Below, piece after piece: positions 190 to 53,700 of a stretch of DNA of 64,000 nucleotides. The position numbers and the translations under genes are program-made. The DNA is taken from the NCBI GenBank assembly GCA_030248215.1, contig JASANG010003005.1, positions 248,001 through 312,000 on the forward strand, written 5' to 3'. Each line of letters begins with the position of its first letter. Position 1 is the first letter of the stretch. Origin of the DNA: Enoplolaimus lenunculus. Its lineage: Eukaryota. Below the pieces are notes generated by a model. The model was not told where the DNA came from. It saw only the letters and a list, made by a program, of their open reading frames with translations, and ran no database searches.

Positions 190-2447
190 CTGATTTGGTA
201 GGAAAATTAAAAAAATTTAATGCCTAGATTTTACCTTGGGTTGGTAGGGAAATCTGAAGCAAAGGTTTTGGTTGGAAAACGGGAAAAGTGGAAAATTCTA
301 ATGCCTAGATTTTCCCCTGGGTTGGTAGGGAAAATCCGAAGCATAGGTGTTGGTTGGAAAACGGGAAAAGTGTAAAATTCTAATGCCTACATTTTTCCCC
401 TGGGTTGGTAGGAAACTCAGAAGCGTAGGTTTTGGTTGGAAAACGGGAAAAGTGGAAAATTGAAATGCCTAGATATTTTCTTGGTTAGTAAGAAATATCT
501 GAAGCAAAGGTTTTGGTTGAAAAGCGGGAAAAGTGGAAAATTCAATCGTAAGGCATATGTTTTGGTTGGAAAACGGGAAAAGTGTAAAATTTTAATGCCT
601 AGATTTTTACGCTGGGTTGGTAGGGAAATCTGAAGCATTAGGTTTTGGTTGGAAAACGGGGAAAGTGGAAAATTCTAATGCCTAGTATTTAATTCTGGAT
701 TGGTAGGGAAAATCTGAAGCACAGGTTTTGGTTGGAAAACAGGAAAAGTGGAATATTCTAATGCCTAGATTTTTACCCTGGGTTGGTAGGGAAAATTTGA
801 AGCATAGGTTTTGGTTGGAAAACAGGAAAAGTGGAAAATTGAAATGCCTAGATACTTTTTTGGTTAGTAAGAGAAATCTAAAGCGATGGTTGGAAAACGG
901 GAAAAGTGGAAAAGTGGAAAATTCAAGCGTAGGGCATAGGTTTTGGTTGGAAAACGGGAAAAGTGGAAAATTCTAATGCCTAGAGTTTTCCCCTGGTTGG
1001 TAAGGAAAATCTGAAGCATAGGTTTTGGTTGGAAAACGGGAAAAGTGGAAAATTCTAATGCCTGGATTTTTTCGCTGGGTTGGTAGGGAAAATCTGAAGC
1101 ATACGTTTTGATTGGAAAACGGGAAAAGTGGAAAATTCCAATGCCTAGATTTTTATCCTGGGTTGGTAGGGAAAACCTGAAGCAAAGGTTTCAGTTGGAA
1201 AACGGGAAAAGTGGAAAATTCTAATGCCTAGATTTTTTCGCTGGGTTGGTAGGGAAAACCTGAAGCAAAGGTTTCGGTTGGAAAACGGGAAAACTGGAAA
1301 ATTCAAGCGTAAGGCATAGGTTTTGATTGGAAAACAGGAAAAGTGGAAAATTTTAATGCTTAGATTTACCCTGGCTTGGTAGGGAAAATCTGAAGTATAG
1401 ATTTTGGTTGGAAAACGGGAAAAGTGGAAAATTTAAAGGCCTAGATTTACCTTAGGTTGGTAGGGAAAATATGAAGCATAGGTTTTGGTTGGAAAATGGG
1501 AAAAGTGGAAAATTCAAAGGTCTAGATTTACCTTAGGTTGGTAGGGAAAGTCTGAAGCATAAGTTTTGGTTGGAAAACGGGAAAGTGGAAAATTTAAAGG
1601 CCTAGATTTACCTTCGGTTGGTAGGGAAAATCTGAAGCATAGGTTTTGGTTGGAAAATGGGAAAAGTGGAAAATTTAAAGACCTAGATTTACCTTAGGTT
1701 GGTAGGGAATATATGAAGCATAGGTTTTGGTTGGAAAATGGAAAAGTGGAAAATTTAAAGGCCTAGATTTACCTTAGGTTGGTAGGGAAAATCTGAAGCA
1801 TAGGTTTTGGTTGGAAAACGGGAAAAGTGGAAAATTTAAAGGCCTAGATTTACCTTCGGTTGGTAGGGAAAATCTGAAGCATAGGTAGGTTTTGGTTGGA
1901 AAATGGGAAAAGTAGAAAATTTAAAGACCTAGATTTACCTTAGGTTGGAAGGGAATATATGAAGCATAGGTTTTGGTTGGAAAATGGGAAAAGTGGAAAA
2001 TTTAAAGGCCTAGATTTACCTTAGGTTGGTACGGAAAATCTGAAGTATAGATTTTGGTTGGAAAACGGGAAAAGTGGAAAATTTAAAGGCCTAGATTTAC
2101 CTTAGGTTGGTAGGGAATATATGAAGCATAGGTTTTGGTTGGAAAATGGGAAAAGTGGAAAATTTAAAGGCCTAGATTTACCTTAGGTTGGTAGGGAAAA
2201 TCTGAAGCATAGGTTTTGGTTGGAAAACGGGAAAAGTGGAAAACTTAAAGGCCTAAATTTACCTTGAGGCACGCAAATTACCCACTCCCGGCACGGGGAG
2301 GTAGTGACGAAAAATAACGAGACGGTTCTCTTAGAAATAGGTTGGTAGGGAAAATCTGAAGCATAGGTTTTGGTTGAATAACGGGAAAAGTGGAAATTTA
2401 AAGGCCTAGATTTACCTTAGGTTGGTAGGGAAAATCTGAAGCATAGG
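190..2447 (+). repeat. ~81-84 bp tandem satellite, left arm of the foldback element (~27 units)
   Basis: Unit GGGAAAAGTGGAAAATTTAAAGGCCTAGATTTACCTTAGGTTGGTAGGGAAAATCTGAAGCATAGGTTTTGGTTGGAAAAC; period 81 measured at 1417/1498. Confidence 0.95.
2267..2335 (+). pseudogene. Short 18S rRNA fragment inserted in a satellite unit
   Basis: AGGCACGCAAATTACCCACTCCCGGCACGGGGAGGTAGTGACGAAAAATAACGAGACGGTTCTC matches the conserved metazoan SSU rRNA segment following GGCAGCAGG (recognised from memory). It interrupts the unit between TTTACCTT and AGGTTGG. Confidence 0.9.
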
Positions 2448-2514
2448 TCGTTGAAATGATATTTAACTTGTTAATTTTAGCAAATATCTGCTATGTGTTG
2501 TTAAATCGTTCCAT

Positions 2515-3300
2515 TGGAATTTGCTACTTTTCCCATTTTACAAACAAAACCTATGCTTTAGATTTTTCCTTCCAACCAAGGGGAAATCTAGACGTAGAAA
2601 TTTTCCACTTTTCCCGTTTTAAAAACAAAACCAATGCTTCAGAATTTTCCTACCAACCCAGGGTAAATTTAGGCGTTTAAATTTTCCAATTTTCCCGTTT
2701 TCCAAACAAAACCTATGCTGCAGATTTTCCCTACCAACCAAGGGAAAATCTAGGCGTTTAAATTTTCCACTTTTTCCGTTTTCCAACCAAAACCTTTGCT
2801 TCAAATTTTCCCTACCAACCCAGGAATAATGTAAGCTTTTAAAATTTCCACTTTTCCCGTTTTCCAAACAAACTTTTACACTACAGATTTTCGCTACCAA
2901 CCAAGGGAAAATCAAGGCGTTCAAATTTTCCACTTTTCCCGTTTTCCAACCGAAACCTATGCTTCAAATTTTCCCTACCAACCCAGGAATAATGTAAGCT
3001 TTAAAATTTTCCACTTTTCCCGTTTTCCAAACAAACTTTACACTACAGATTTTCCCTACCAACCAAGGAAAAATCAAGGCGTTCAAATTTTCCACTTTTC
3101 CCGTTTTCCAACCAAAACCTATGCTTCAAATTTTCCATACCAACCCAGGAATAATGTAAGCTTTAAAATTTTCCACTTTTCCCGTTTTCCAAACAAACTT
3201 TATACTACAGATTTTCCCTACCGAACCATAGAATATGCAGGCTTATGAATTTTCCACTTTTCCACAGCAAAACCTATGCCCGCGATTTTTCCTACCAACC
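2515..3300 (-). repeat. Same satellite in inverted orientation, right arm (~9 units, partly dimeric higher-order repeat)
   Basis: Reverse complement of the left-arm unit (TTTTCCACTTTTCCCGTTTTCCAACC...). CAGGAATAATGTAAGC and CAAGGGAAAATCAAGGCG variants alternate. Confidence 0.9.
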
Positions 3301-4186: not shown

Positions 4187-4387
4187 CACTGCAAAAAATG
4201 GTGAGTCAAATTGACTCTCTCCGAAATAGGCTTTTCCCGACTACACAAACTGAGTCAAAATTCGACTCTGCCTGAGTCAAATTCGACTCAATTTGACTCG
4301 GGCGGAGTCGAATTTTGACTCAGTTTGTGTAGTCAGAAAAAGCATATTTTGGAAAGAGTCAATTTGACTAACCATTTTTTTGCACTG
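4187..4387. mobile_element. CACTG-ended palindromic MITE family A (CMC/EnSpm-like, 2-bp TSD)
   Basis: CACTGCAAAAAATGGTGAGTCAAATTGACTC... with inverted end. Other copies: 7342-7534 (TG/TG), 9757-9976, 12431-12653 (TA/TA), 13316-13362, 24918-25117, 25278-25429, 27978-28106, 46737-47075, 53188-53419 (TA/TA). Confidence 0.8.
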
Positions 4388-4419
4388 TGCCCCTTTGAAA
4401 AAAACTACGCAAACTGCAG

Positions 4420-5280: not shown

Positions 5281-8200
5281 ATGGTTATTATTGTTAATAC
5301 TCAATCCTCAGGTAGTGTACAAAAGACTGAAGAATCAATGCTTGTTTCTATCTGTGTTGGCGGGCGGGCGTTTACGTTTTTACGCTCAACATTTGAAAAC
5401 TGCCAACGAATATCTGGAACCAAATTTGCTACCATTTTTGCGTTAAACAATGAGTGTAAGTGTTAAATATCTTGAATTGCGGTGTATAGTGTCTACTAAT
5501 CTGCTCCGCAGTAAAACAAGGCTTATGTAAAATCAGAGGCGGAACGTTTTTCTGAATAGATTAAGCTTAAGCTTTAGACTAATTTTTTTGCTTGGCTTAG
5601 GCTTAGGCTTAGGAATATGCTCATTCTGACGCTTAGGCTTATTCTTAGGAATATGCTTATAATACTTGCACGTTTTCTTTACATTGGCCCACAGCAAAGG
5701 TTTCCATGTGCCAGCAAGATTATATACTTGCATTCGAAATCTATGCCGCTTTTACAGCAAAGATATAAGATTTCCAAACTCAACCGTCTATTCCATTGTC
5801 ACGTCAAAAAATAGACATCAAATTGGATCAGTTGTATCGCTGTCCAATCTAGCAACAATTGGCTTCAAGCCTGTGATACTTTTGAAAAATGTTCCATCTC
5901 TGGTATCACAACAATTCGTCGCCCGACAACTGGTCGCATGACAACTTGTAATGCGAAATTATATCGACTCGCTCAATTTGTCGCCTACCATTATGCTTAG
6001 GATCCCGGCTTAGGCTCACGATTACGCATAGGATTATGATTAGATTTATCCAGAGGCTTTTAGACGCTATAGAGCGACCAGTTGTCGGCCGACAAATTGT
6101 CGTAGATTCGCCATCTCTACATAGAGTTTATGCTATGAGAAACTTTAGCGCAAACTGTGTACGCAAAATTGTGCACAATGCGCAGTGTGTCCTACTAAAC
6201 AATTATTACGCGTTTCCGTAATCTAAATAACGTCAAAGACCCCTCGAGCTCGAGCGCCAAGCTTCTATTGCAGAGCGGTAATCGTAAACGCCACCCACGC
6301 GAGAGTCGCGAGTACGAATCCTCGTATAAACAAATTTGTTAATGTTTCATTATTTTACAATCACCGTGCGCAAAAATTTAATCAGAGCAACACAATTTAC
6401 TTTTATTTCGTAACTTGTGTTTATCCAAAAAATGGCCAATGTTACTTATAGAGCCGTAACAGTAGATTAAGCGTATTCCTAAGCCTAAGCCTAAGCCTAA
6501 GCTTAAGCTTAAGCAAAAAATGTAGTCTAGAATGTAAGCCTACTCTTTAACAGATCTTCCAGAAACCGGGACGGCCCTAAAAATAACATGGGTCCAAAAA
6601 ATTATGCTGTAAAAATTGCAAAACTTCTGCTTTCGTAAATAATATTTGAAGCGCTCTTTATATTGAACTTTAGTAATTCATTTCAGCTCGGAGCGCAAAG
6701 CGGATCAACCGTGACAGCGCCAACCAAAATTCGTTCCCAAGTCAAATTCAGTATTCTTTTAATCGTGATCCTGTCGTATTTGAATGCATCTATCAGTACG
6801 TTGTATGTGGGATGTTGCACAAACCACCATATGTTTGTGACGATGCAATGAAGGTATGAAAGTTAGTTCTGGCGATGTAGAATGTCTGCTTAGAGAGAAA
6901 ATAATTTAAATATTTGAATATTTTTTCGATTTCAAACTCTAGTGCTAAAATGTAAGTTTTGCGGTCACGTTTCTGGTTTTTACAACTGTCATTTGCTCGT
7001 ATAACAACTATGAGTTGTAGCCCAACAGCCGAAATTTTACAGAATATAAAGCAAAAGTTTTCACCGTCAAAGCAAATTTTGACTGGTTATCGAGTTTGGC
7101 CAGATAACTGCTTCAGCGCGCTACTAGTGGTTTGATTATAACTGGTTAAACCAGAGTTCTGATTTCAAAAATTTTAACACCATTCGACCTCAGTTCCCCA
7201 AACTATGTCAAATGGTATTATCTAATTTATATTACATTGTGGTAAAAAATGGTTTGGTTTCTGTAAGGGAACCTCAGGACGTTAAAAATGAAATTTTTTG
7301 AAAGTTCAAATTTGCGTGTGAAATGATCACGAGAGGTCATGCACTACAAAAAATGATAAGTCAAACGGACTTTCTCCGAAATACGCTTTTCGGGACTACA
7401 CAAACTGAGTCAAATTCGACTCCGTCAGAGTCAAATGCGACTAACTGAGCGACTGTGGTGAATCGAATTTGACTCCGCAAGCGGGAAAAGCCTATTTCAG
7501 AGAAAGTCAATTTGACTCACCATTTTTTGCAGTGTGAGAAGTTGAAATATGCAAAAAAATTTCAAATCCGACAATGGTTGCGCAAACTCCGGTTTTGAGG
7601 ATAACGTAGACCCGAATTTTTTCGTAACATTGTTTGCCAACTCCTGTATTAAATAGACGCCGTGACGGTACTGATTTTGTGCAGTTTTAAATGTGTCAGG
7701 ACGAACTTACGTTTTGGAATATTAAAGTGTCGGAGTTACAAGAGTCGGCAACGGCCATGGTCCAGCAATGCTCCTGTGTCAGTAACGTATTCCCAAAGCG
7801 TCGCTATTCTCGAGTCGCATTTGGATCTGGTGCGACTGTCCCAGTTGTAACCTGGAAAGACGAACCTGTTCGGATCACTGATGTTAACGTTCCGTTATCG
7901 GTCAAATGCCGATACTTAAAACAACGATTGTGGCATATTTTTGATGGACAAGATACCACCTGGTTGGGATACGTTAGTTGGTTTTTCCGAAATATATTTT
8001 ACAATATATTGTTATAAAACTTTTTAGGCCCATGTATAGAACAGGGCCGGATCGTTTACCGAAGATGCTATAATAGAGTCAGTTTAAGCTTTTGACTGAT
8101 TTTTTTGGCTTAGGCTTAGGATTAGGCTTAGACTACGGAATAGGCTCATCTGTATGCTTCGGCTTAGGCTTAGGCTTAGGACTATGCTTATACTACTGTT

Positions 8201-11200
8201 CCGGCCCTGTTCTATATATGGGCCAAAACTTTATATAACAAGTTATTTTGACTGAAAACCAAATATATAGTCACCGCAGGCTAAACTCGAAGATAATAAT
8301 TTTCAAAAATGCTTTACGATTAATTTTAATTAATTTAAACTCAACGTAAGTCTGCCACGCTTACAAGCAGGCGTCTAGCAAGAATTTGTAATTGAAAGTG
8401 TGTTAGATGTTGGATTAGAGGGATAGAACCCCAAACAATCCTTTGACTAGAACAAGAGTCGCTGTCCACGGGCGGTGACAAAAAGTTATCGCTGACGATT
8501 TGAGAAATGTGCTTTCAAAAATACATTATAATGTTGGCACTGCTATCCTATACGGTATTCTGCACTAAAGCTGCTAACGAATGTCCACAAGTTTGTTCTT
8601 ATACGTAGGCTATGCTGAAAATGGTCAATGTTACTGTTAGGACTGTAGCAGTAGATTACGCATATTCCTATTCCTCAGCCTAAAGACTAAGCGTTGAGAA
8701 AGTGGACTCCTAAGCCTAGGCCTAACCTACGCAAAAAATGTAGCCTACAATCTAAGCCTACTCTTTTACATACCCACCAGAAACCGAGACGGCCCTGCAA
8801 GTATTAACGTGGACCCTGAAAATAGTACTGCTGAATTTTAGGTACACCACTGTGTCAAAAATTCTAGTTCAGAATTTTCAATAAAAATCGTTCTTATATA
8901 TCTAAAACACATAACCTTTTTGAAGACTGCCGCTAGCGAAAATCAAAGTCACCGCCTGAGGGCGGCGACAAAAATATAGACCAGCGGTAAAGCCGTGATG
9001 CTTGATTTTTACTCAAATTTTGAATCCGTGCTCTGGTATACCTACTTCCCCTACGTTTCTAAAGCTTAAGCTTAGGGAAGTTTTTTCTGAACCTAAACCT
9101 AAGCCTAAGTCTTGATGCTAAGACTAGTTTGTGTGGGGAAAATTGGTAGGTTAAGATGCGTTAATGTTGTTTTGTAATTTTTTTTCTACTTCTTTCTATT
9201 TTCAGTCAATACTTTTGCTTTCAATTGCGTTTGTAATCTTAAATATTGCGATTATTATTTGGGATTCACTGCCTGGGCACCAATGGTCGAGTGTTTTGGA
9301 TGGACTCGGCAGACCAATTAACACGTCGTACCAAGGACACCTAATGAACCTAAGTTCGCTCAGACGAGATGAAAATAGTCAATTCAACAGAACAAGTACA
9401 GATGATGGTAAGACGACTTCGTTTTTGGTGAACAGCAACTTGGCCAGGATATGTCGTTGTTAAGGAATGACCTCAAAAACCTTTTATGATCTCAAAAAGA
9501 ATAAGAAATTAATAATTGCAGATGATGCAAAAAGTAATTTTTTTGTCCAAAAATTTCACAAGGATATATCTGCGCTTTTAAGTCTGCTCCTTAATATATG
9601 GGCCTTTCTCCGGGTATACCGGATATCCTTGTTCGTTGTTTCCGGTAAAAATCTTTAAACCCTCTTATGGGTACTAAAACATTTTCGGAAGGGTAATAAA
9701 ATTGTTTGACTGATAAGGATAATAAAAAGAAATTAATTTAGGCGTCTCGGTCCTTGCACTGTAAAAATGGTGAGTCAAATTGACTCTCTCGGAAATAGGC
9801 TTTTCCTGACTACACAAACTGAGTCGAAATTCGACTCCGCCATAGTCAAATTCGACTCACTGAACGATTCAGCGAATCGAATTTGACTCTGGCGGAGTCG
9901 AATTTTGACTCAGTTTGTGTCGTCAGGAAAAGCCTATTTCCGAGGGAGTCAATTTGATTCGCCATTTTTTGCAGTGTATGGGATTCAAGCGTTCCTCTTA
10001 TACTACTATCAGTTATTTTGCCTTTATGATAATGAAATTTTTTGTAGCATTTTGCTTGTTTTACTTCGTTTACAAACTTGAACTAAAATTGTACCTATGT
10101 AACATTTGAAAAATTATTATAACTAAATATTTTTGCGTTGACCCTATCTTTACACGTGTCACAAATTGCTCGTTAAAACATAATGTAGACGCAAATTCGA
10201 CGTAATTTTTTTCGTTGAAGCCCGATCATCGAAAAATTTTCGTTGAGGAAGGGTTAACAGCTTGCTGTTACTGGTCATCTCTGACAATTTTTGTGGCAAT
10301 GACAAATATGATATTGTGAACGGCGTCTCGAACCAAGCAGGTAAATCGTAAATGAGATGACAGTAATGTTTAGTGCGGTTTGAACTGGGACATCAGACCT
10401 TTCTACTAAGCAGCTTAAAAAGCGGGCCTCCAGAGTATCGAACTCTCAGCTTACGGATCCTTAAGCGAACACTCTACCACTGCGCCATACAGCCCGCGTG
10501 TCCAACTGCATTTTTCGTCGACTATACAGTGTCGATCGTATGCTGCCAGCCAAGCATACATACACTGCACTGCACTATATTTCAAGTGCACATATAACGG
10601 ACAAGTACGTCTCACATGCTTACAACGAGCAAGCCGTATATTTGACATTTAGGCTCAATTCGATTTTTGTTCTTTTTAATTCCAACCAAACAGATATCAG
10701 AACATATTTGATTGGACAATATTCGAATTTTTAGACCAGAAACTGGCAACAGCTCAAGCGTTCTGGATAACTGATTGGGTGTGCAACGCGTGGTTTACAT
10801 TAGAACTTTTGGTCAAATGTTTGACTGCGCCAAGCTTACGGTATCTGGCAACCGATGTTTTGTTCGTTATTGATGTACTTGCCGTGCTTCCATCTTACAT
10901 TACTCTGCTTACAACGTTGATTTTAGCAAAATTAGATTCAACTCATTTTCAGGTTACGGTAATTTAAATAACTTTTTAAAGTCATTATCCTACTTATGTT
11001 CAAACGGACGTTTGGATCCATTTACTCAGTATCTTAATATCGACCTGCTCCGGTTTCTATATTATTTTTGGACCATGTAAAGATCAGGCGACGGAGACTT
11101 TTGTCTGTGACACTAGAATAGAGTAAACTTAAGGTTTAGACTATTTTTTGCTTGGCTTATGCATAGGCTTAGGCTTAGGCTTAGAAATATGCTCATTTTT

Positions 11201-13192
11201 ACACTTAGGTTTAGGCTTAGGCTTAGGCTTAGGCTTAGAAATATGCTCATTTTTACACTTAGGTTTAGGCTTAGGCTTAGGCTTAGAAATATGCTCATTT
11301 TTACACTTAGGCTTAGGCTTAGGCTTAGAAATATGCTCATTTTTACACTTAGACTTAGGCTTAGGCTTAGAAATATGCTCATTTTTACACTTAGGTTTAG
11401 GCTTAGGCTTAGGCTTAGAAATATGCTCATTTTTACACTTAGGCTTAGACTTAGGCTTAGGCTTAGGCTTAGAAATATGCTCATTTTTACACTTAGGCTT
11501 AGACTTAGGCTTAGGCTTAGAAATATGCTCATTTTTACACTTAGGCTTAGGCTTACGCTTTAGGCTTAGGCTTAGCACGATGCTTACATTGGCCTTATTT
11601 TTTGATGCAATTTTCGGAGTTTTGGTACCGAAATTGTATTTTTTTTGTTTAATTTTTGAACGTTGCGTTCAATAATTTAGTTTATCGTTCGGTAATTTAT
11701 AACTTTTCGAAAGAATACTTTCTTATTAAACAGCGTGTAAAAATATTGACGAATTTTTAACGTCCGTTGTAAAAAGTTACAATTTGAGCATCAGTTGAAC
11801 TCGTGGTCTGCCCAGCGTTCAGCTTTGGCAATTCTTGCAAAGGTTCACTTTCCACTCAGCTGTTTTTTAATCATCTGTTGCAGCGGATAGTTACTATTAA
11901 GTATCAGGTGCGTAGCCAGGGGGATCAGACGTAGCTCAGTAGTTAGAGCAGCGGACCAGTAATCCGTACGTCGTGGGTTCGAGCCCCACCGTATCCGCAG
12001 TAAAATTTTCGCACACGGCTCTATATCGTACTGCTTAACTTAGAATTTACATACACTAATATTGCTTTGATAGAATGAAAACGCGTTTCATACACTACTG
12101 CTTATTATTGTTCTCTTATTCCCTAACCTTATTCTGAGGGTTATTAAGCTTATGCTAACCTTAACCTTAAACCTAAACCTATTTATCCAATCGGCAAATG
12201 TTACTTTTAGGGCCATAACAGTAAAATAAAGATATTCTTAAGCCTAAGCCTAAGCGTTGGAAAAACTGTATTTCCAAAGTTAAGCTTAAGTTTAAGCAAA
12301 AAATGCAGTCTAGAATGTAAACGTACTCTTTTACAGACACACCGGAAACCGCGTCTGCCCTAACATGGACCATCCAATCATTGCCTGTTTCATTAGTCCA
12401 ATCATTATGGATGGGAAATCTTTTTGCCTACACTGCAAAAAATGGTGAGTCAAATTACCTCTCCGAAATAAGCTTTTCGGGATTACACCAGCTGAGTCAA
12501 ATTCGTCTCCGCCAGAGTCAAATTTGACTCACTGAGCGATTCTCATTGAGTCGAATTTGACTTCGGCGGAGTCGCATTTTGACTCAGTTTGTGTACTCAG
12601 ACAAAAGCCTATTTCGGAGACAGTCAATTTGACTCACCATTTCTTTTGCAGTGTATAGGAAAATAAACAAATGCCCAATTTGCAGCAAAAATCAACATCG
12701 CAATAGGAGTTAGGAAATTAGCTCGAAAACGTTTTACCATTTTTAGCTCTTAAAAATGCTTCGGGTTGTGCGTGCAGTTCGTATTGTGCGTATACTGAAG
12801 CTTGCAAAACTTGATGACAGTTTTCGAATCATGACACTTGTTGGGCGTCGGATTGCACCTGATATTGCACTGTTTGTGGTGTATCTTGCAGTTGCAACTT
12901 TGTTTTTTGGAACAATACTTTACTACATCGAGGGACACAATCCGGACTCTCGCTATCAAACTATTATGTCAGGAGTGTTCTGGGCAGTCGGTTAGTCAGG
13001 ATGCCGCTATACTTTTTGATCATTATGATGCCTTTCAATGTCGTTGGCCGTCGTACGCCACCGTACGCCAACGCATATGCATTGCCTCAAGGTATTGCGT
13101 AGCAGTGTGTAAGCAAAAATTATTTAACTTGCGGTGACGGTCGGCGCTTGTGGCAATTGTGGGCCCATTGATATAGAACAGGACCGGAACGC

Positions 13193-13287
<95 letters not shown>

Positions 13288-13842
13288 CATATTCCTAAGG
13301 CAACGCGTAAGCCTACATTGTAAAAAATGGAGAGTCAAGTTGACTCACCATTCTTTGCAGTGTAAGCGTAGCAATGAGCTTATACCTAACGCTAAGCCTA
13401 AGCCTAAGCCTAAGCAAAAAATTAGTGTAAAGCATAAGCTTACTCTATTACAGCCCCGCAGAAAAAACGTTCGGGCCATGTTCTATACATGGGCCCAATT
13501 GTCGTAGCCTAGAACAGTATTTCAAACTTAAAACTTAGAATAATTATCTCATGTTTAATAGATGTATAATTTTAAAAAAATATAAGAAACTTTACGTTGT
13601 AAATATACAAATATATATTTTTTCTTGAGACGGCGTTTTATTTAATTTCGTATATTTTTTAAATTTCAGCATCTCACTTTTCGTTCTCGGATGGTCCACC
13701 GATAAGCACATTAGGTCGTATGGTATCGGGAGTCGGTGCTGTAACAGGCGTTGTGATTATGGCACTACCGATAACATTTCTTGTACAAGGATTTAGCGAA
13801 GCGTTCAGAGAATTTAAGAGTGAAAAACAAGATGGCAAATGA
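5281..13842 (+). CDS. Voltage-gated potassium channel-like subunit (Shaker superfamily, T1 + 6TM) with degenerate selectivity filter; ~485 aa, 7 exons
   Basis: Exons with GT-AG ends and matching phases: 5281(start uncertain; alternative acceptor at 5311)-5455, 6687-6853, 7700-7972, 9206-9407, 10735-10958 (alternative donor 10952), 12747-12990, 13670-13842 (TGA). T1: VSICVGGRAF...YSFNRDPVVFECIYQY...LHKPPYVC...DELTFW. S2 CNAWFTLELLVK; S3 IDVLAVLP; S4 LRVVRAVRIVRILKLAK; S5 ...FFGTILYYIE; S6 GRMVSGVGAVTGVVIMALPITFLVQGF. Confidence 0.9.
6434..6594 (+). mobile_element. Telomeric-repeat (TTAGGC)-bearing MITE, Merlin-like, subfamily 1
   Basis: GGCCAATGTTAC...(GCCTAA)n...TAACATGGGTC with TSD CAAAAAAT. 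Similar copies: 8623-8815 (TSD CTGAAAAT), 12192-12372, 19922-20105, 21210-21459, 23003-23193, 32314-32497, 39707-39956, 46045-46470, 52666-52805, 62437-62620, plus partial copies. Confidence 0.85.
8027..8224 (-). mobile_element. TTAGGC-bearing MITE, Merlin-like, subfamily 2
   Basis: GGCCCATGTATAGAACAGGGCCGG...CCGGCCCTGTTCTATA ends. Similar copies: 13162-13495, 23928-24052 (TSD GACGTAAG), 29869-30216, 32725-32911, 41948-42177. Confidence 0.85.
10422..10497 (-). pseudogene. tRNA-derived sequence (tRNA pseudogene or SINE head)
   Basis: Minus strand GCGGGCTGTATGGCGCAGTGGTAGAG...GAGAGTTCGATACTCTGGAGGCCCGC then TTTTT. A box, B box, a terminal stem and an oligo-T terminator are present; D and anticodon arms pair poorly. 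Confidence 0.65.
11070..11594 (-). mobile_element. TTAGGC-bearing MITE (subfamily 3) with an expanded internal minisatellite
   Basis: Perfect TSD TTATTTTT. Internal unit is (TTAGGC)n+TTAGAAATATGCTCATTTTTACAC, about 8 copies. Similar copies: 5520-5689, 40460-40863, 48611-48757, 53721-54053, 62114-62301. Confidence 0.85.
11925..11997 (+). pseudogene. tRNA-Thr(AGT)-like pseudogene or SINE head
   Basis: D arm GCTC/GAGC; anticodon arm GCGGA-CCAGTAA-TCCGT; T arm GTGGG-TTCGAGC-CCCAC. The 5' acceptor strand is mismatched and abuts a CAGGTGCGTAGCCAG hAT-type end. Confidence 0.7.
13193..13287. repeat. (AGT)n microsatellite inside a TTAGGC MITE
   Basis: Pure AGT run of about 31 units, expanded from the element's CAGTAGTA motif. 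Confidence 0.95.
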
Positions 13843-14200
13843 GAGTATTTAGCTTAAATATATATGCATTACAGCTCTTTCACGCTTCGTCTATAAGCTG
13901 AGTTTCCAGGCTTTGGCTTAGATTTTTAGCTTAGAAAAAGGCTTACGAACGCCTATGTTTTTGTTGTCTAAAACTTTTTCTAAGAATTTACCCTCAATTT
14001 TAAATGCAGAAGGAAAATAGGAGCCAAGAATGCAAAATTGGATTATATAAAAACTAAGAAAAGACGAATTCTATAAAGTTACACTCCACTGCAAGGTCTC
14101 GCGAAGATTTGTGGAACCAGGTGTGAGCTTATGGGGCTTGCTATTGAGGGCTTTGTGACCGATATGCTACAGATTTTCTGCCATCAAATTTTTAACCTTA

Positions 14201-42300: not shown

Positions 42301-44793
42301 TAAATTCGCCCCTACGTTCACCAAACAGCCGTAACAATTGCACGACTACATATCATTAGGCTTCCACAAGACCATTAATCAAGCTAATAATATCGCAGTT
42401 GCGCTTTGAGTGAGTGATTTTACTGCAACGTAAACGACGTGGTTGTCTTGGCGGGCGGCACACTAGCTTTCACTAAGACTGAAGATTAATGTTTTTGCTC
42501 ATTTTCAGCTCACTGCATGTAAAAAGTTAATATTTTTTGCTTTCTAATATTCAATTTTTCGTAAATTCCAATCATTACTGCAGCTATTTTTAGTTTACTT
42601 TAGGAAGTAATTGAAACTACGACTCATATATAACTGTAATATCTGAAAGACTGTGAGTATTGTACAGTTGGTTTATAATCCAATATATATTTTAGGTTGT
42701 TTCTCGCAAAGTTTTTGACATTTGGTTATCATTGGTATATGGTTTCGACGTAATTCACCAAAATAGACTCTTGAAAATTTATTTTATGTTACAATGGCTG
42801 AGTTTGTGAAACCCTACCTAAGCATCACTTGGCACTAAAAGTATGTGCTAAACAATTACTTATCCATTTTGTCGTTTTAAAAACGTACTTAAGTGAAGTA
42901 AATACTTAAGCTGCTGATTAAATCTGATAGATTACAAATTAACCGTTCATGTATACAAACCTTGGTGCAACTGAAATTGCAGACTCGAGGCTGGTCCTAA
43001 ATATAAATCAAAACTATTACTTTTTTGTTATGACAATGGCTCACATTTGGCGTTTACCTGGTTTATTCGAAAAGTTAAACATTTACTTAAGTCAGCGGAC
43101 TTAAGTAACTATTTAAGCATAGCTTAAATTTGTACTAAAATAAAATTTCAGAAACTCAGCCAATGTTTAATAAAACTACGTCTGGCTTGTTGCTCGCTTT
43201 GCTTACAAGATTTATTTAAATTTTTTCATAGTGATAATCCCTCGGTTAGAAATGTCTTTGGACTCGCGTCTGTGGCCGTGTTTTAAGTACGATTTCGACT
43301 GTAATGCTGTTTGTTTTGTATTTTTTTACAATAATATTATGGCCAAATTTGATTTTTTTTAAATTTACAACGGATTATTTTCAGTTGTTACTATTAATAA
43401 TAAATAAAAGTTCAACGGACAACGCTTTATACACTGTAAATTCCGATGAGTTGATTAATCAACTCAGATGGCGAATTAGTCATTTCTGGTTATTTCTGAG
43501 TTAAAAACAGTAAACGTTAACTCGCTCTGAGTTGGTTTAATTGCCGGGCAAGGGAATTAACTAACTCAAAATGAGTTAATTCAAATCAGAATTCTGAGTT
43601 CTGAAAGACCTTATGCAGAGCTCACATTTCTGAATGGATTCAACTCATTCTAAGTTAAAATCAACTCACTGGATTTTACAGTGTAGATCAGAACACAGAG
43701 ACAAATAGATGTTGTTACACTGTTGTTTCTTGCTTTTAGAAGCAAACATAAAGTTCGTAAAACGAGTAGGATAATTATGTTATTAGTTTGCATACTGTAG
43801 TGACCTGAATAAGAGGGGGTAATAAAAAGGAGAGTCCATATTTTGATTCCCGATCAATAGGAGTCCGTATCCCTAATAAGAGTCCGTACGCGGATAGAGT
43901 CACTAAACCCTAATTAGCGTCCATAAATGTCAATTATTCCTGATTGTAGTGCATAAAATGACTACAGGACCAAATGGGGTGTTTAGCGATGGGGGTGGCG
44001 CTAAACACGGCCATAATTGTCGCTTACACAAGTAATATTTTTTGTAATTTTAGTGTATAACTTAAAGCTACATTTCACCCTAAACCTGTATTCAATAAGC
44101 TATATAACATACCTGTGTGTGTCTTTGCATATTGAACCAGTATCAGTTTCATTCAACATCAGTCGTATAATTGACGTTCGTAACAACACATTTCATCACG
44201 GAGCCGATTAAGCATCGAGTATTGTACCGTTCGAACCCATTGAAACCAAGATCGTTCCTGAAAAAAGCACAAAAGTTATATTTTCACAAATATTTTGGCA
44301 GTTGGCCAGTTTGAATTTTAAATCTCGTTCAACAAAACATCAAATATTATTTTATGAGCTTGAAATCGATATCTCGTGTGACTTTATTCAACACAGTTAA
44401 AACCAATTTTCAAACAAATACTCTAATCAAACAATTGGTGTGTGCGCTTCGCGTTTCAATTCGCAACATTATGCGATAAAACTCTGTGTGAGTGTGGGAA
44501 AATTTACAATATTTTGCATTTAATTACCTCTGGTGCATCTTTATCCCCATCGCTGACTTCCGATATCCTTCGCGTTATTGAATCAGATTTCACCTGAAAC
44601 AAACCAAACAAAAACGCTGCAATTGAATTATTTCATCGATATAAAATATACACGTTTCAATACCCGTTTTGCTACAAACTCGTCATAAAACCAAGCAAAA
44701 ACAACGCTTATACGAACCCTGCTGTAAAATCTCTGTACTCAGCTGGGTTATTCAAACAACTGTGAAATATTACACAATTGACACTTTCACATT

Positions 44794-47700
44794 ATGGTAT
44801 CATCAACAGAAAACGGCGGATTTTTCGCCAAACTGATGGGTAAAACTGGATCCGCGGACGTGACCACGCCGACAACACCGACGCTGAGCAATTTGCCGCC
44901 GGATATAGATCCATTGCGGAAAAAGAGCGTTTTTGACATTGATCCACCGACAGATCTTGACGCGGAACTTGATCAAATAGATGAATCTGATACGAAACCT
45001 GAACGTGGCAACTGGAGCGGTCGGTTTGATTGTTTGATGTCGTTGATCGCGTACGCCGTTGGACTGGGCAACGTATGGCGGTTTCCGTATTTGTGTTTCA
45101 AGAATGGTGGAGGTAAACGTCCGTCAGATTTGCAGATGTCAGCACACTGTAAATTGTGATGAGTTGATTAGTCAACTGTTGAGAGAGAGATTTAGTTATT
45201 TCTGGTTATTTCTGAGTTAATACCAGGCAACGTGAACTCGCTCTGAGCTGATTTAATTGTGTGCTAATTGATTATTTAATTGCATTTACCTTATTTTCAA
45301 ATTGCTATCGACCGTGCGAGTAATTATCCACATATATAAGGTATATATACAAATATATACATATCAGGGTTCCAACAGGAACTAAATTTTGCCGAAACAG
45401 GAACAAGAACAGGAATTTGAATAATTTTCATCACCGAATTAATATCGGGCTTTTTAGAAAACTTGCCAAAAGTGGTTTAAGTGAATTTTCAGCTATTTCA
45501 TCACTAAGTTTTGCGAAAACACATCAGGAACAATTCAGTTTGAACGGGTACCAAAACATTAATTTTGACATAAAAAATTTCTCAAAGACAAAGTTTCCAA
45601 TATTTAAATGATAGTGAATAATTTGTCACAAATTTATGGTTTAGGTGCATTTTTGGTGCCGTATCTGATTTGTTGGGCTCTTGCAGCCGTACCAATATTT
45701 ATGCTCGAGGTTACAGCGGGTCAATTTCTGCAACGTGGTGGCGTTGGCATTTGGAAAGTGTGTCCACTGTTCAGAGGTAAAATTACGCATCGAATACCGA
45801 GTAGAGTTAAGTGTTCTACGACTGCAGTTGCTTGTAAAATCATGGAAACAATTATTTAGTTAATTTAGCAAGCGAGAAAAGTTTCATTCGGACACTACGA
45901 AGTTGCATGCGATTTGAACTCGTGTAAAAAGTGTCGTTTATTGTTGCTTCTACAACAGGTTCGAGGCAATAATGTTCATATATTTTGTATCATTTGAATG
46001 TGAAACTGTCAAACTGAACGAAAAAATGTTTTAACTGGGATCGCGGCCAATGTTACTTTAATGGGCGTAACAGAAGATTAAGCGTATTCATAAGCCTAAG
46101 CATAAGCCTAAGCGCTGCAAAAAATGAATTCCTAAGCCTAAGCCTAATCTTAAGCCTAAGCCTAAGCCTAAGCGTTGCAAAAATAAATTCCTAAGCCTAA
46201 GCCTAATCTTAAGCCTAAGCCTAAGCCTAATCTTAAGCCTAAGCCTAAGCCTAATCTTAATCCTAAGCCTAAGCGTTGCAAAAATAAATTCCTAAGCCTA
46301 AGCCTAATCTTAAGCCTAAGCCTAAGCCTTATCTTAAGCCTAAGCCTAAGCCTAATCTTAAGCCTAAGCCTAAGCGTTGCAAAAATGAATTCCTAATGTA
46401 ATCTAGAATCTAAACCTACTCTTTTATGGACCCACCACAAACGTGGACGCTCCTTAAAGTAACATGGTCCGTAACCCCGATGAAATCAAATCCAATTTTG
46501 ATTAAATCATTGAATCGGCGGGGAGATTAACATTGTTTTTAGGTGTTGGTATTGCGAATATTGTGATTTCGTTCATGTGTGCTATTTACTACTGTGTTAT
46601 TGTCGCGTGGTCGTTGTTTTATATTTTTTCATCGTTTGTCAAAGTCCTTCCGTGGGTTCATTGTGAAAACTCTTTCAATGACATCAGGTGAGTGTAATAA
46701 AATATGTCAGATTAAAAAGCTTTTGGCACTATTGCACACTGCAAAAACTGGTGAGTCAAATTGATTCTCTCTGAAATTGGCTCTACGGGACTACGCAAAT
46801 TGAGTCAATTTGGATTCCGCCAGAGTGAAACGTGCGACTCTAGTGAGTCAAATTTGACTCCGGCGGAGTCGAATTAATAAAATATGACAGATAAAAGCTT
46901 TTGGCACTAGCGCACTGCAAAAAATGGTGAGTCAAATTGACTCTCTCTGAAATAGGCTTTACGGGACTACACAAACTGAATCAATTTGGACTCCGCCACA
47001 GTGAAACGTGCGACTCACTGAAACTTGCGACTCAGTGAGTCAAATTTGACTCTGACGGAGTCGAATTTGACTCAGAAGCCTAAGCCTAAGCCTAAGCGTT
47101 GCAAATGCGTATACCTAAGCCTATGCCTAAGCCTAAGCCTAAGCTTAAGCAAAAAAATATAGTCTAGAATATAAGCCTACTCTTTTACAGACCCACCACA
47201 AACCGGGACAGCCCTAAAAGTGACATGGGTCAAGATGGCAAACATTGTGTAGCTGGAAATCCTGCGAAAATACATCTGTGCTCGTGTTTCAAAAATGACA
47301 AACGGGTTACATCTTCTCTACCCCCCATTGTAAATATAAACTTCTTCTCGATATTAATCGAACGTTTTGTATTGAATTTTATCATTTCGATATATTTGAT
47401 ATAAATTTCAGATGCGTCGCGGGCCACAATTCAACTGAAAACAAAACGGAATGGCTCGTTCAAATGATTGAGCAAGGCTTTGGTCCAAACGATACACAGA
47501 CTCCTGTTGAACAGTTTTGGGAGTAAGTTGGATTTGAAATTTTGGTCCGTTAGCATCTTTTCACCCGTTCATCAGTCAGTAACGCGGTTAAGAGTAACAC
47601 AGCTTCAAAAGTTGGTTGTGCAAAAATCTTGGCAATTCAAATTTCAGACCAAGAATTTGTATAACGTTTCAAAACCACATAATTAATGACTTCGTTTCTG

Positions 47701-50700
47701 GCTGAAATTTATCAAGCAACAAAAAAGCTATTTTTGTAGTCTAATCAAAATTAATATTTACAAGAGTAAAGAAAACATATGTCGTAGCCCAAATCGTAAT
47801 TCTGGCCTATTCCGAATTATGCTAGTCCAAAGCGGAATTACGACTCGGGCTAGCCCAAGGCGGAATCATGTCAGATAAATTTGTGAGTCTTCCAATTGGT
47901 TACTTGATAGTCGTAATCGTACTTGATTCCGCTGTGCTCAGTAAAACAAACTGTTAGGTAGCCAGTAGGTGTTGATTACTTAGCCAATCAGAAAATGTAT
48001 TCGCATCACCCAATCGTATTTGAGTATGGCATTAAGGTAATAACCAATGACAAGGCGTACACTTGTCGCATAAGAAGAATTACGCCGTAGGATAGCCCAA
48101 GTCGTAATGACGCCCTGGGCTAACGCAATTCGGAACTGTCCTAAATTACGACTTGGGCTACGACATATATTCAACGCATATTGCGTTGTTTCTAGATGAT
48201 AAGTGGTCTCAATTCAGTATTGAGTGCACTTGCATTTCAGTTTATGAGCCGTATTCTCAAATGCAAATAGCATTTATCATGATAAATCAAATGCGAAGTA
48301 TGTGCAGAATTTTCCGAGCGACTCTCAGAAGCTATTCAAAGTGCAAGAAATCGGATATAATGGCAAATTTTAGTATCAGCTATATTTTGCATGAAATTTT
48401 ACTTGTTCAACAAACTTAACCTTATGTCTTCTGGTGTATTTTAGGAAGAAAGCATTGCAAACAACCGATTCCATTGATGATACTGGCGTTATTCATTGGC
48501 AATTACTTCTTCTATTCATACTCTCTTGGATTGCTGTATATGCGGCGTTACGTAAAGGCATCACAAATGCACGCAAGGTAAATTGGCTGCAAACTTGTTC
48601 AGTTACCCTTGGCCCATGTAAAGATCAGGGACGGAAGGTTTTTCTGTGCGACTGCAATAGAGTAAGCTTAATCTTTAGACTAATTTTTTGCTTGGCTTAG
48701 GCTTAGGCTTAGAAATATGCTTATAATACTGTTCCGACCCATTTCTTTATATAGGCCGTTACCTTTGTGCAGGGTAAACAGGAAGTCTGTCTGCCATTGA
48801 TTCTGGCACAAAATCGTCTTCCGGTTCTGGCTTTGGGTCCTGCAAAATTTGTTGACTTCCGGTTTCAGTATTTTTAAGCTAAGTTGGATCTCTGATTTTG
48901 CGGGGAGTTTGAGGGGGGCAGGAAATCAACGCGAGAAATAGTTGAGGATTGTGCGCAACACTCACGCCAGTTAATAATAAGTTTTCAAACATGCGAACAT
49001 CTAAAGTTGCGGATCTTAAAATTGACACTGAAGTTGAGCAAAGTTAATGCAAAATTTGCTAAATTTGTTTACATCAACAGTCACTGGTTTGAAAGTTACA
49101 AGACTTCTCACCAACAAGTGACAGGTGCTATACACATTTGCGTCTTTTCTGTTGTTATCCCCCAGCATACATTTGCCCAAAAAATGGTTAGATTTTAGAA
49201 AAATTTCGCATATTTGAGCTTTTCATGACCTAAATTGCACGTCCAAATTTGAATTTTTGAAAAAATTGGCTTTTTAATGTCCCAAACGAAAGATTTCCGC
49301 CACCAGACGACTGGCTAACGAGTTATGGTCAAATAACTGGTTTGGCGCTGTTCCAAATCATTGGCAACGCGCCAAATCAGTCATTTGACCATAACGCGTT
49401 AGCGAGGCGTCTGATGTCAAAATCTTAACACCACTGCGCTCAGCTCAACAAGCTGCGTCGAATGGTACATAATTTGTCTTAAAAAATTTCCGCCCCAAGA
49501 GGTTGACCGTAAGATCTTAGAACGAATTTTTCAAAAATTCAAATTTGGGCGTCGAATGATCAGGGGCGGGTCATGAGAAGCTCAAATACGTCAAATTTTC
49601 AAAATCCAACCATTTTTGGACAAACACGGACTGGGGGGGATACCAGAAAATACCCCCAATTTGAGAATATGGTCAGAAACATTTGCATACGGCAATCAAA
49701 TTGATTTGCCATGGTAATGAATTTATATTTGATTTCGTGTTGTATTTTATGTTTGTAACCGCTGAAATTATAATTAAGATATTATTGTATTTTTAGCTGG
49801 TATATTTCTGCGCAATTTCACCGTACGTGCTATTATTCATTTTACTGGGTCGTGGTGCATCGTTACCAGGTGCTGCAAAAGGCATTGCGTACTATATCAA
49901 ACCGAATTTAACAAAGCTTGCAAGTACAACGGTAAGTCAACACTAAATATACGAAATTTAACGTTTTGACTATTTTCAGTTTTTTTATTAGTGAAGGCTG
50001 CTTTTTGTTTAATTTTAACAGAAAACGTGTGTGTTACCTTTTAACCCTTTCACTCACAGAGTATACTATGAGCAACTAAATACAATAATGTACGAGCAAT
50101 ACACACACACTGTGTGCAGTGTTTAACATTTATAAGATATATGCGCAGCGTAAAAATCTCCACAAGACGTGAGAGCCTACTCGAGCTCGAGCGTCAAGCT
50201 CCTATAGCTTAGTGGTCATCGTAAACGCCTCCAACCCGTGTGACTGGGGATTGAATCTTACCTTGAAATTACATCTCATATGAAATTGGAAATATTCATG
50301 TGAGAAAGAGTTAATTGTGTATCGGTTAAATCAAAAGAAAATCTTTAGATTTAACTATGAAGCATCATTTGTTATTAAAATCAGTAGAATTTTGCATGTT
50401 AAACTGTCGCGTAGCGAATGGTTGAGCCGCCGGCTCTCTAAAACATTTTGACACCCTAGAAATCTTTTCGCCCAGTTGTAATACAGCTTGTGAAATCAGC
50501 GGACGGCCCCTCGGAAGTTATTTTGGCGTTCCCAGGATGATGAGCTGGCTACGGAATTAACGGACTTGTTTTCTATTTGTTCCAAATTTGACAAAAAACC
50601 CGATTTTTTTATGAACCATGCCCGTAGCCCGGTCACCTTGATTAAAATTTTTTCAGGACGGACATACAAGGGTTTTCGATGACTTATAAGCAACCAGCAA

Positions 50701-53700
50701 GGATGATTAGTTTCTAAAATAGGGCGGGGGGGGCAAAAATCTTCCAGGGGAACCGAGTCCCCTTGTCCCCTCTGGCTGCTTCTCCGTAATGACCACAATT
50801 CGTGAACCTGCCGATTATGACCAAATTATTTTCCGACCTAAATTGTAAACGTTTTTGATTTGGTTTTAGGTTTGGCGAGAAGCAGGCACTCAAGTGTTCT
50901 ATTCTTATGGAATTGGCTTTGGTGCCATTATGGCTCTTGGAAGTTATAATACTTATCATCATAATTGCTATTTGTAAGTTGATTTTTAGACAATTTATCA
51001 TATAATGATAATGGTTGCACTGTAAATTGCAGTGAGTTGATTTTAACTCAGAATGAGTTGAATCATTCAGTCTGAGTTAGGACTATAAGAACTAAGCATT
51101 TTGAGTTGATTAAATTAATTCTGAGTTAATTATCAACTCATCCACAGTCATCTCAACTCAGAGTGAGAATCAACTCAACTGAGAATGCGTTAATGTTTAC
51201 TATAATAATTCAGAAATATCCAACTCGCTAGCTGAATTGATTAATCAGCTAAGTGGAATTGGCAGTGTGGGTTCGAATAATAAGAACTGTTTGTTTTATA
51301 TACCTGCTATTTAAGCTATCAACACAGTTTGTGCAAAAATATCAAACTGTCAGCTGTAAACAAGCTTTCTTCAAAAGCTGAAACCGATTCCGGAAACCAT
51401 CCACAATGAATGTTTTCCCGTAGACTCCATAATGTTGAGAAATGATACTTAGAATAATTTGTTATAATCCCAACAGCGCCTGTAAGTTTACACCATCCAT
51501 ACATACTTGCAGCAAAACTGAAGTACCTACACTGTAAATTGTTATGAGTTGATTAATCAACTCAACCAGTGAGTTAGTTATTTTTGAATTAATATTATCA
51601 AAAGTGGATGATCACTCTTTATAACAAGAGTGTGCAACTGGGTATATTCTGTGTATTAAAAAATGTACCCGACACGCGTTGCGTTTTTGGCCTACGCCCC
51701 TTGTTTAGGGGGAAGGGTCTGAATGCACATACAAACAACTTTAGTGTGATTAAACAACATAGTTGACCCCCCTTAAATGAGGGGTGTAGGTGTACTAAAG
51801 CATACTTTATTGTTAATCTCTTGCTTAAACCCCCCCCCCTGACTGAGGGGGGGGGGTCGAACAAAAATGCAACGCGTTCTGGTACATTCTTTAATGCACA
51901 GAATGTACCCAGTTGCACACTCTTGTTATAACGAGTGATCATACACTCTTGATATTATTAAACATTAACTCAATATGAGTTTAGTTGATTTTGGTGGAGT
52001 TGCTTAATTAACTCAAAATGAGTTGAATTGACTCAGAACGTTGAGTTCTGATAGCCCTAACTCAGATTGAGTGATATAAATCATTCTGAGTTAAAATCAA
52101 GTCACTGAAATTTACAGTGTAAGCATTCTTTACAATTTCGAATGCTGGTGACGGTTCGTCTTAACGCACCATATTACCCAAGTAATTTTTGGTCGATTAG
52201 CTTGGAAAAGTTTCATAAATCCATAAATTGGACTAAATTACTCGAAAGTTGTAACCTTAGTTCGTATTTGCTTATAGGGACACGGTGAGTCTGGTATTTA
52301 TCAACCTGGGTACGAGTTTAACTGCTGGTTTTGTCATATTCAGCGTACTTGGGCATTTAGCTCACACAGCGCAAAAAACGGTCGCTGAAGTCGTAAAGTC
52401 TGGTAAGTCAAAGGAAAAAGTCACCAAGCATGTATTTTGGGCCCGCCGCCTTAGAAAGTTTTCAGCGTTGCTTGTAACTCATTGAAAACGCTTGAATGCC
52501 CCACCTGAAAATTTTTAGCCACCTAGCAAGGTTATCTGACTACGGGTATGCCAGCGTTGTTATGAAATTAAAAAAGTTTCAGAATTAATTACAGCTGAAA
52601 TTCACGCTGATATATCCTAAAGGTTTGAATGTTTAAATCGAAAGAGTTGCTCAGATAACATTTCGGGCCAATGTTTAAGGGGCGTAACAATAGATTAAGC
52701 TTATTCCTAAGCCTAAGCCTAAGCCAAAAAATGTAATCTAGAATCTAAACTTACTCTTTTATGGACCCACCAGAAACCTGGACGCCCCTTAAAGTAACAT
52801 GGGCCATATTTCGAATGGGTATAAACATTAAGTGTGCTGGAATACAACAAATCAAACACATATCTGTATAAACCTTAAAGCTTTACATCTATTAACCTTT
52901 AGCTTTAATCCCAAGCATAATTTGATCCAGTGACAATGTCAAACACTGTGGGTTGAACGTGTATCAGAGTCGAATTTTTGTACGCAATAGTTTTTTATGA
53001 ATTTGCATATGTCGGCGATATAATTTTAGGAGTCGGCCTGGCGTTTTTGGTGTATCCAGAAGTTGTTGCCGTCCTTCCAATTTCGCAACTGTGGTCGGTT
53101 CTGTTCTTCACAATGATTACTATTCTTGGCTTGGATTCACAGGTTTGTTTAAGTGTATTGAGTTACACCTCAGACAAGCGTGTTGTACACTGCAAAAAAT
53201 GGTGAGTCAAATTAACTGTCACCGAAATAGGCTTTACGGGACTGCACAGACTGAGTCACAATTCGACTCGTACAGAGTCAAAATGTGCGACTCAGTGAGT
53301 CGAATTTGACTTTGACGGAGTTGAATTTGGCTCTGACGGAGTTGAATTTGACTCAGTTTGTGTAGTCACGTAGAGCCTATTTCGGAAAGAGTCAATTTGA
53401 CTCACCATTTCTTGCAGTGTACAGTAAGACCGCTTATTTTATAAAAAAATAAAGCAAACAAGATATGACCATACCTGTTCCGTTTAAGCTTTAATTAGAG
53501 ACTGAAAGTCAACTGAAATAATGAAGTCAAATGAATTTTACAAATCAAATATAAAATCGTAAATGGCCACAAATCCGTGGAGTGTCGGGTAATTTTTAAC
53601 TCCATGATCAATATTATCAACTTTGTTACGCCTGTGACAAACTATCAGTAGTGCAAATATGACAAAAATAAGTAAATCGTGCACATATTTTCATTTGCAA

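Follow-up and report, generated by a model that had tools for sequence, protein, structure and literature searches.

A Shaker-family channel gene of Enoplolaimus lenunculus appears to encode a maintained voltage-sensing Kv paralogue that lacks the K+ selectivity filter, a reading supported by an intact frame, by retained sensor residues, and by the conservative nature of its other changes. The gene lies on the forward strand at 5281-13842 of the window, the stretch of 64,000 nucleotides analyzed here (GCA_030248215.1, contig JASANG010003005.1, positions 248,001 to 312,000). At the level of the assembled DNA, the altered sequence predicted at the junction of exons 6 and 7 was confirmed as real.

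The gene consists of seven exons whose intron boundaries are all GT-AG. Joined, they give 1452 nt and 483 codons, with a frame that stays open to a single terminal stop, bearing out the first-pass annotation of seven open exons with good splice sites; the acceptors end in a T-rich (C/T)AG. The predicted product has the Shaker-family layout of T1 plus S1-S6. Exon 1 (5281..5455) holds the start codon and the first part of the T1 domain; a TTTTAG acceptor-like site 37 nt 5' of it may represent a trans-splice site or point to an upstream exon. Exon 2 (6687..6853) encodes the T1 core, with Kv4 as its best match (Kv4.3 T1, E 8e-5; Pfam BTB_2, E 0.004, under the cut-off). Exon 3 (7700..7972) carries the end of T1 and the T1-S1 linker, and exon 4 (9206..9407), the least conserved part, carries S1 and the S1-S2 loop with a hydropathy peak at 206-224. 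Searched singly, exons 1, 3, and 4 gave zero Pfam matches, and exon 3 alone was also without a match in Kv PDB searches; all three fall in place when aligned to full-length relatives. Exon 5 (10735..10952) spans S2-S3 (Pfam Ion_trans, E 9e-9; Kv1.2/Shaker alignment) and contains D286, F293, E296, K300, and D319 of the charge-transfer center. Exon 6 (12747..12990) encodes S4, S5, the turret, and the pore helix, while exon 7 (13670..13842; Kv2.1, E 1e-5) supplies the filter, the D-G-P-P sequence, S6 with its hinge G453 and gate PITFLV (13768-13785), a short tail, and the stop.

The surroundings of the gene are rich in repeats. A tRNA-like sequence at 11929-11992 (+; Rfam, 45.9 bits), either a tRNA gene or the head of a SINE, sits in intron 5 of the channel gene. 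An inverted-repeat (MITE-like) element of about 200 nt occurs in many copies across the window (e.g., 4190-4390, 9760-9975, and 12435-12655), as do elements with internal TTAGGC runs, and several repeats lie inside the channel gene introns. Across the window, TTAGGC was counted 202 times versus 39 for TTAGGG; excerpts of telomere papers give TTAGGC as the canonical nematode telomeric repeat. Upstream, a satellite of about 81 nt forms head-to-head arrays at 212-3263, with an inversion around 2450-2520, and a eukaryotic 18S rRNA fragment (2244-2335; Rfam E 4e-4, under the cut-off) lies inside an array of 81-83-nt units. Downstream, a multi-exon SLC6 sodium:neurotransmitter symporter gene (44782-58167, +), three exon stretches of which match Pfam SNF, offers a synteny marker.

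The unusual feature of the gene is its pore. The join proposed earlier at 12990/13670 was upheld: the phase-1 donor of exon 6 is G|GTTAGT, position 13669 is the last base of the acceptor TTTCAG, and the predicted join reads SGVFWAV-A-SHFSFSD-GPPISTLGRMV. Junction translation and alignment place the rewritten filter segment, (A)SHFSFSD, at 13670..13692 (+). The D-x-x-P-x-T/S-x-x-G register that follows is kept, as had been claimed, with YGDIYPKTLLG of Kv2.1 aligned to FSDGPPISTLG. Likewise, the segment is two residues short: the loop running from the second Trp of the pore helix to the Asp has 11 residues, versus 13 in 54/56 relatives, the other two being one with an insert and one (P0085) with 11 residues yet a normal filter. 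Any coding of TTVGYGD differs from the segment at 9 or more of its 21 bases, which excludes a single read error. That Ser replaces both glycines is true in a single register only, since four placements of the 2-residue gap tie at a BLOSUM62 score of 7; MAFFT places the gap at V-G and thereby drops that pair, giving T439>S, T442>S, Y>F, and G446>S. No register retains any glycine in the filter. Of 59 aligned relatives that reach S6, 57 carry G[YF]G[DEN], which the window protein does not, and the two exceptions look like gene models that stop short or read on into an intron.

One further change lies just upstream, in the pore helix, where the first Trp in 61/64 relatives is replaced by F423 (12978-12980). 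This is the Shaker W434 position, and the earlier identification of Phe there agrees with the alignment; the top PDB match of exon 6 (8vch) likewise reads FFWAV.

The intron between exons 6 and 7 contains no hidden conventional filter. Its three forward frames lack G[YF]G, in line with the first-pass annotation, and a search for T.G[YF]G or G[YF]GD in all six frames of the window returned a sole, unrelated match on the minus strand at 57072. Within the window, tblastn found no second copy of any exon, exon 7 included, and reading through the exon 6 donor meets an immediate stop, leaving no read-through product. The same annotation had also excluded an alternative in-frame splice site in intron 6; this part must be withdrawn, because an in-frame cassette candidate exists at 13103..13108 (+), an unproven 6-nt microexon of the form AG|CAGTGT|GTAAG with a strong donor and a weak acceptor. 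It is one among 46 stop-free AG..GT candidates and is located in unique sequence; the 6-nt microexon pattern occurs once in the intron and is expected 0.04 times (218/5000 shuffles). Its inclusion would yield AVSSHFSFSD, which restores the length of the loop but not GYG, and whichever cassette is used, SHFSFSD still precedes D-x-x-P. A regulated microexon is described for nematode kvs-5 in excerpts of two reports (10.64898/2026.05.26.727998, 10.64898/2026.09.14.751627). P0085, an annotated Mesorhabditis KVS with a normal filter, is missing its two residues directly after the pore-helix WW, and several other nematode models end at WW, which suggests an intron at this place with splice slips or a missed microexon.

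Relatives were sought with phmmer, using exon 6 (81 residues) as the query against 1.84 billion representatives at E <= 0.001; this gave 190 matches, of which the best 150 were listed and compared with the spliced protein. Among these 150 of 190 matches, the best identity over full exon 6 was 40% (P0012), and there was neither an orthologue nor a relative with a loop similar to SHFSFSD. When exons 6, 5, and 7 served as queries in word-based protein searches, 0/154, 0/101, and 0/12 candidates held up, although such searches are weak evidence. The one match from a metagenome scan, 23 residues long and located in non-Kv DNA, is due to chance, and the ESM Atlas returned generic ion-channel clusters only. 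RNA support was found in none of 24 listed sequencing runs (word share at most 0.04, a measure in which repeats in the query may mask genuinely matching runs), and the 4 of these runs that were aligned to 13290-13900, which takes in the second half of intron 6 together with exon 7, covered the TTAGGC repeat only.

The gene is likely derived from nematode Kv2-type KVS channels, judging from phylogeny. For the tree set, 64 of the 150 matches were taken (S2-to-pore-helix cover, at least 85 bits, under 1200 aa; no named Kv3 or Kv4 among them), and two careful trees were built on 41 and 34 rows hand-picked from these, leaving out other long branches and dropping the filter columns. In the resulting 42-row tree (LG+G), the window protein grouped with twelve KVS-clade proteins and with P0009, P0012, P0038, and P0108 at a support of 100/98. 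The 35-row tree (C20 mixture) gave the same grouping with ten KVS-clade proteins (99/98), and a quick tree of 65 rows recovered it weakly (62). The four P-numbered sequences are Logan Kv proteins that adjoin the named KVS clade as the nearest rows; P0012 and P0038 keep the filter. Placement of the window protein with Kv1 was rejected (p-AU 0.0009), as was placement with another four-row group, perhaps Kv3 (p-AU 0.0009), while placement beside canonical Kv2 was not (p-AU 0.165). The end branch of the window protein, 2.3-4.0 changes per site, was the longest in each careful tree, and nematode Kv2s are described in part of one study as highly divergent and prone to attract long branches (10.1101/2025.09.21.677649). 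For a protein so far diverged, the KVS placement may reflect long-branch pull.

Outside the filter, the charges of the voltage sensor are retained. S4 carries an unbroken series of R351, R354, R357, R360, K363, and K366 (12759-12809), i.e., Arg or Lys at every third place, and the counter-charges in S2/S3 are present; F293, E296, D319, the hinge G453, and P460 are retained. Sites near-invariant among the 64 relatives (at least 90%) were kept at 17/23 positions outside the filter and at 1/5 within it (one-sided Fisher p 0.04). The 31 changes at conserved non-filter columns had a mean BLOSUM of +0.65, versus a neutral value of -0.61 +/- 0.27 that reached this mean in 0/5000 draws. In a simulation of neutral decay, for which the indel rate was assumed, 4% of copies stayed open at 2% divergence and 0/2000 at 5%. 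Because the sensor charges and the hinge are kept and the other changes are conservative, plain decay does not describe this gene; conservative changes in an open frame suggest instead that the fold was long under selection, which may predate the filter change. Overall divergence is strong: conserved columns were kept at 14/25 in the sensor (near the minimum among relatives), 7/14 in S5 and the pore helix, and 7/12 in S6, and the pore has changed beyond the segment itself (W434F, helix Pro>Met, D-G-P-P).

The T1 domain, identified by its match to Kv4.3 T1 and its alignment with named Kv proteins, has half of its zinc motif. The H-x5-C (6818-6838) is kept, and the CC of HX5CX20CC reads SA (7745-7750); CC is retained in 12/14 relatives having H-x5-C but not in the window protein. 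According to part of a preprint, disruption of the Zn site in KvS subunits need not prevent them from donating the cysteine needed by a neighbor (10.1101/2021.11.09.467962).

The explanation we favor, while giving it somewhat less than an even chance, is that the protein is a non-K+-conducting, voltage-sensing partner subunit that assembles into KVS tetramers and reduces or retunes the current they carry. The predicted splice form would be made and its voltage sensor would move; T1, which keeps the cysteine given to a neighbor's zinc and is without its own CC, would favor mixed over own tetramers. A loop without at least one filter glycine and without the W434 brace would probably not pass K+ as a homomer, and in heteromers it would spoil conduction or selectivity. 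Shaker W434F abolishes K+ current. In the available part of one study, Gly-to-Ser changes at the first filter glycine leave Kv and HCN4 channels non-conducting or dominant negative, and HCNL1 is presented as a pore-dead channel kept by nature (PMC7306766). The PIT gate was also considered as a mark of a silent subunit, as P3T is for vertebrate silent subunits in an excerpt of PMC6279357, and was rejected: PIT/PIS is also the gate sequence of named nematode KVS proteins whose filters are normal, so the motif indicates ancestry rather than silence. Two further considerations weigh on the favored explanation: (i) known silent subunits form conducting heteromers, which counts against a non-conducting partner, and (ii) Kv2.1 filter mutants, G379R included, conduct non-selectively (PMC4621747, in part), so that a non-conducting pore is not a given. 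Thus, from the initial description of a non-conducting or differently selective voltage-sensing paralogue, the voltage-sensing paralogue stands on its frame, sensor, and conservative changes, whereas "non-conducting" is weakened by these non-selective mutants.

Non-selective conduction of this kind underlies a possible but doubtful alternative, in which the gene encodes a voltage-gated non-selective cation channel with a CNG-like loop that would pass Na+ or Ca2+ and depolarize, alone or in heteromers. Aligned ungapped after W-A-V, the loop loses its two residues at YG and becomes S-F-S-D-G-P-P, which has CNG length and an acidic-x-P-P sequence; SFSDGPP is identical to the CNG mimic TVGDTPP at 3/7 positions (BLOSUM 18, versus 9 for FSDGPP/YGDIYP; motif from part of PMC3082925), a resemblance of seven residues that was found after looking. 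The score of this register against the K+ motif is 3, versus a best of 7, and the T(V/I)G glycine kept by CNG and NaK is Ser in the window protein. Loss of selectivity has precedents in Kv2.1 V378A, G379R, T374I, and S347R (PMC4621747, in part) and in nematode K2P channels with atypical filters, among which UNC-58 passes Na+ (excerpt of PMC11513965). The Ser, His, and Asp of the loop are polar and the S6 hinge is retained, but Phe at the W434 position counts against a conducting non-selective channel. The more specific proposal of a Shaker-family pore rebuilt along CNG lines within a nematode lineage, giving a voltage-gated non-selective or Ca2+-permeable channel with, possibly, a length switch by the 6-nt microexon, we consider unlikely; use of the microexon would abolish the CNG loop length.

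Somewhat less credible again is a recent break of a fast-evolving ordinary K+ channel, by one deletion or splice shift that took away the original beginning of exon 7 and turned former intron into the apparent filter; the gene would then be a young pseudogene or null allele with a frame still to decay. Exon 7 opens with 20 nt of which 16 are pyrimidines, and 4/5 of the most pyrimidine-rich coding 20-mers sit at the start of exon 7 (seen after the fact), although Ser, Phe, and His codons are pyrimidine-rich in any case. TCG, which lies two steps away from any Gly codon, encodes both serines, and a single event would account for the 9 changes plus the gap. The altered loop is shared by no orthologue among the 150 of 190 matches listed, and a young break would leave the same signals of selection outside the filter. 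However, the acceptor TTTCAG is full, T-rich, in frame, and equal to the other five, and the pore changes beyond the first 20 nt point to an older relaxation.

Improbable is a wrong gene model or assembly, with a true transcript that has a normal filter through a missing exon, a collapsed region, or other splicing. The sequencing runs (24 listed, 4 aligned) give no read check of the assembly or the junction, and P0085 suggests that models slip at this place. Nevertheless, the altered residues, D-x-x-P, and S6 are continuous in one exon, with no AG from the acceptor to the Asp codon, the window contains neither a GYG exon nor a second exon 7, and the base differences from a normal filter number at least 9. 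A purely structural role, a gating-pore function, or some other role is very improbable.

The favored non-conducting partner is best seen against systems already described. The nematode KVS channels (Kv2/Shab-derived; here KVS-1 of Aphelenchoides and Aphelenchus and BTB-Kv proteins of Plectus, Meloidogyne, and Parastrongyloides) share with it T1 plus 6TM, the H-K-P-x-x-x-C...E-L-x-F-W stretch of T1, the PIT/PIS gate, and the tree neighborhood. In contrast to the window protein, to which they are 20-30% identical, those with a complete pore all keep TxG[YF]GD, both pore-helix Trp, and the T1 CC. The silent subunits Kv5, 6, 8, 9, Kv3.5, and the cnidarian regulatory subunits resemble it in the P3-to-T gate, the damaged T1 zinc motif, and a likely role as heteromer partner; however, they form conducting K+ heteromers, and its own P3T is inherited from KVS instead. 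As far as is known, silent Kv subunits keep the filter (a figure legend gives this for Kv6.4). KVS-1 itself is an A-type K+ channel (PMC4809605, in part).

Other likenesses cross family borders. As in the window protein, the fish sperm proton channel HCNL1 has lost the filter motif and kept the voltage sensor, but it belongs to the HCN family and conducts protons by way of a Met that interrupts the S4 arginine series, whereas S4 is unbroken here (PMC7306766, in part); HCNL-like proton conduction was rejected for lack of such a gap. UNC-58 of C. elegans and other atypical K2P channels are nematode K+-channel relatives with a changed filter (PMC11513965, excerpt), yet they are two-pore channels with no voltage sensor and a one-residue change, compared with a rewritten, shorter loop. 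CNG channels and NaK2CNG-D have the short loop and the acidic-x-P-P after the filter (PMC3082925, in part) but keep T(V/I)G and belong to another, ligand-gated family; the window protein has the D-x-P-P and not the Gly. Word searches of open-licence literature found no filterless Shaker-family member, and the available portion of PMC3519636 contains nothing on filters. The gene had been put forward as the best candidate in the window for an undescribed system; on the evidence of this one genome, it would better be called a variant inside the known Shaker family.

No motif of that family is known to be more fixed than the K+ filter, and even the silent members assemble into heteromers that conduct K+. 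If the reading given here is true, the E. lenunculus protein would be a natural dominant damper, a voltage sensor that does not conduct, or else a Kv channel turned into a depolarizing one, with HCNL1 and UNC-58 as parallel changes in other channel families. It may then serve as a natural test of how much filter loss a Kv tetramer tolerates.
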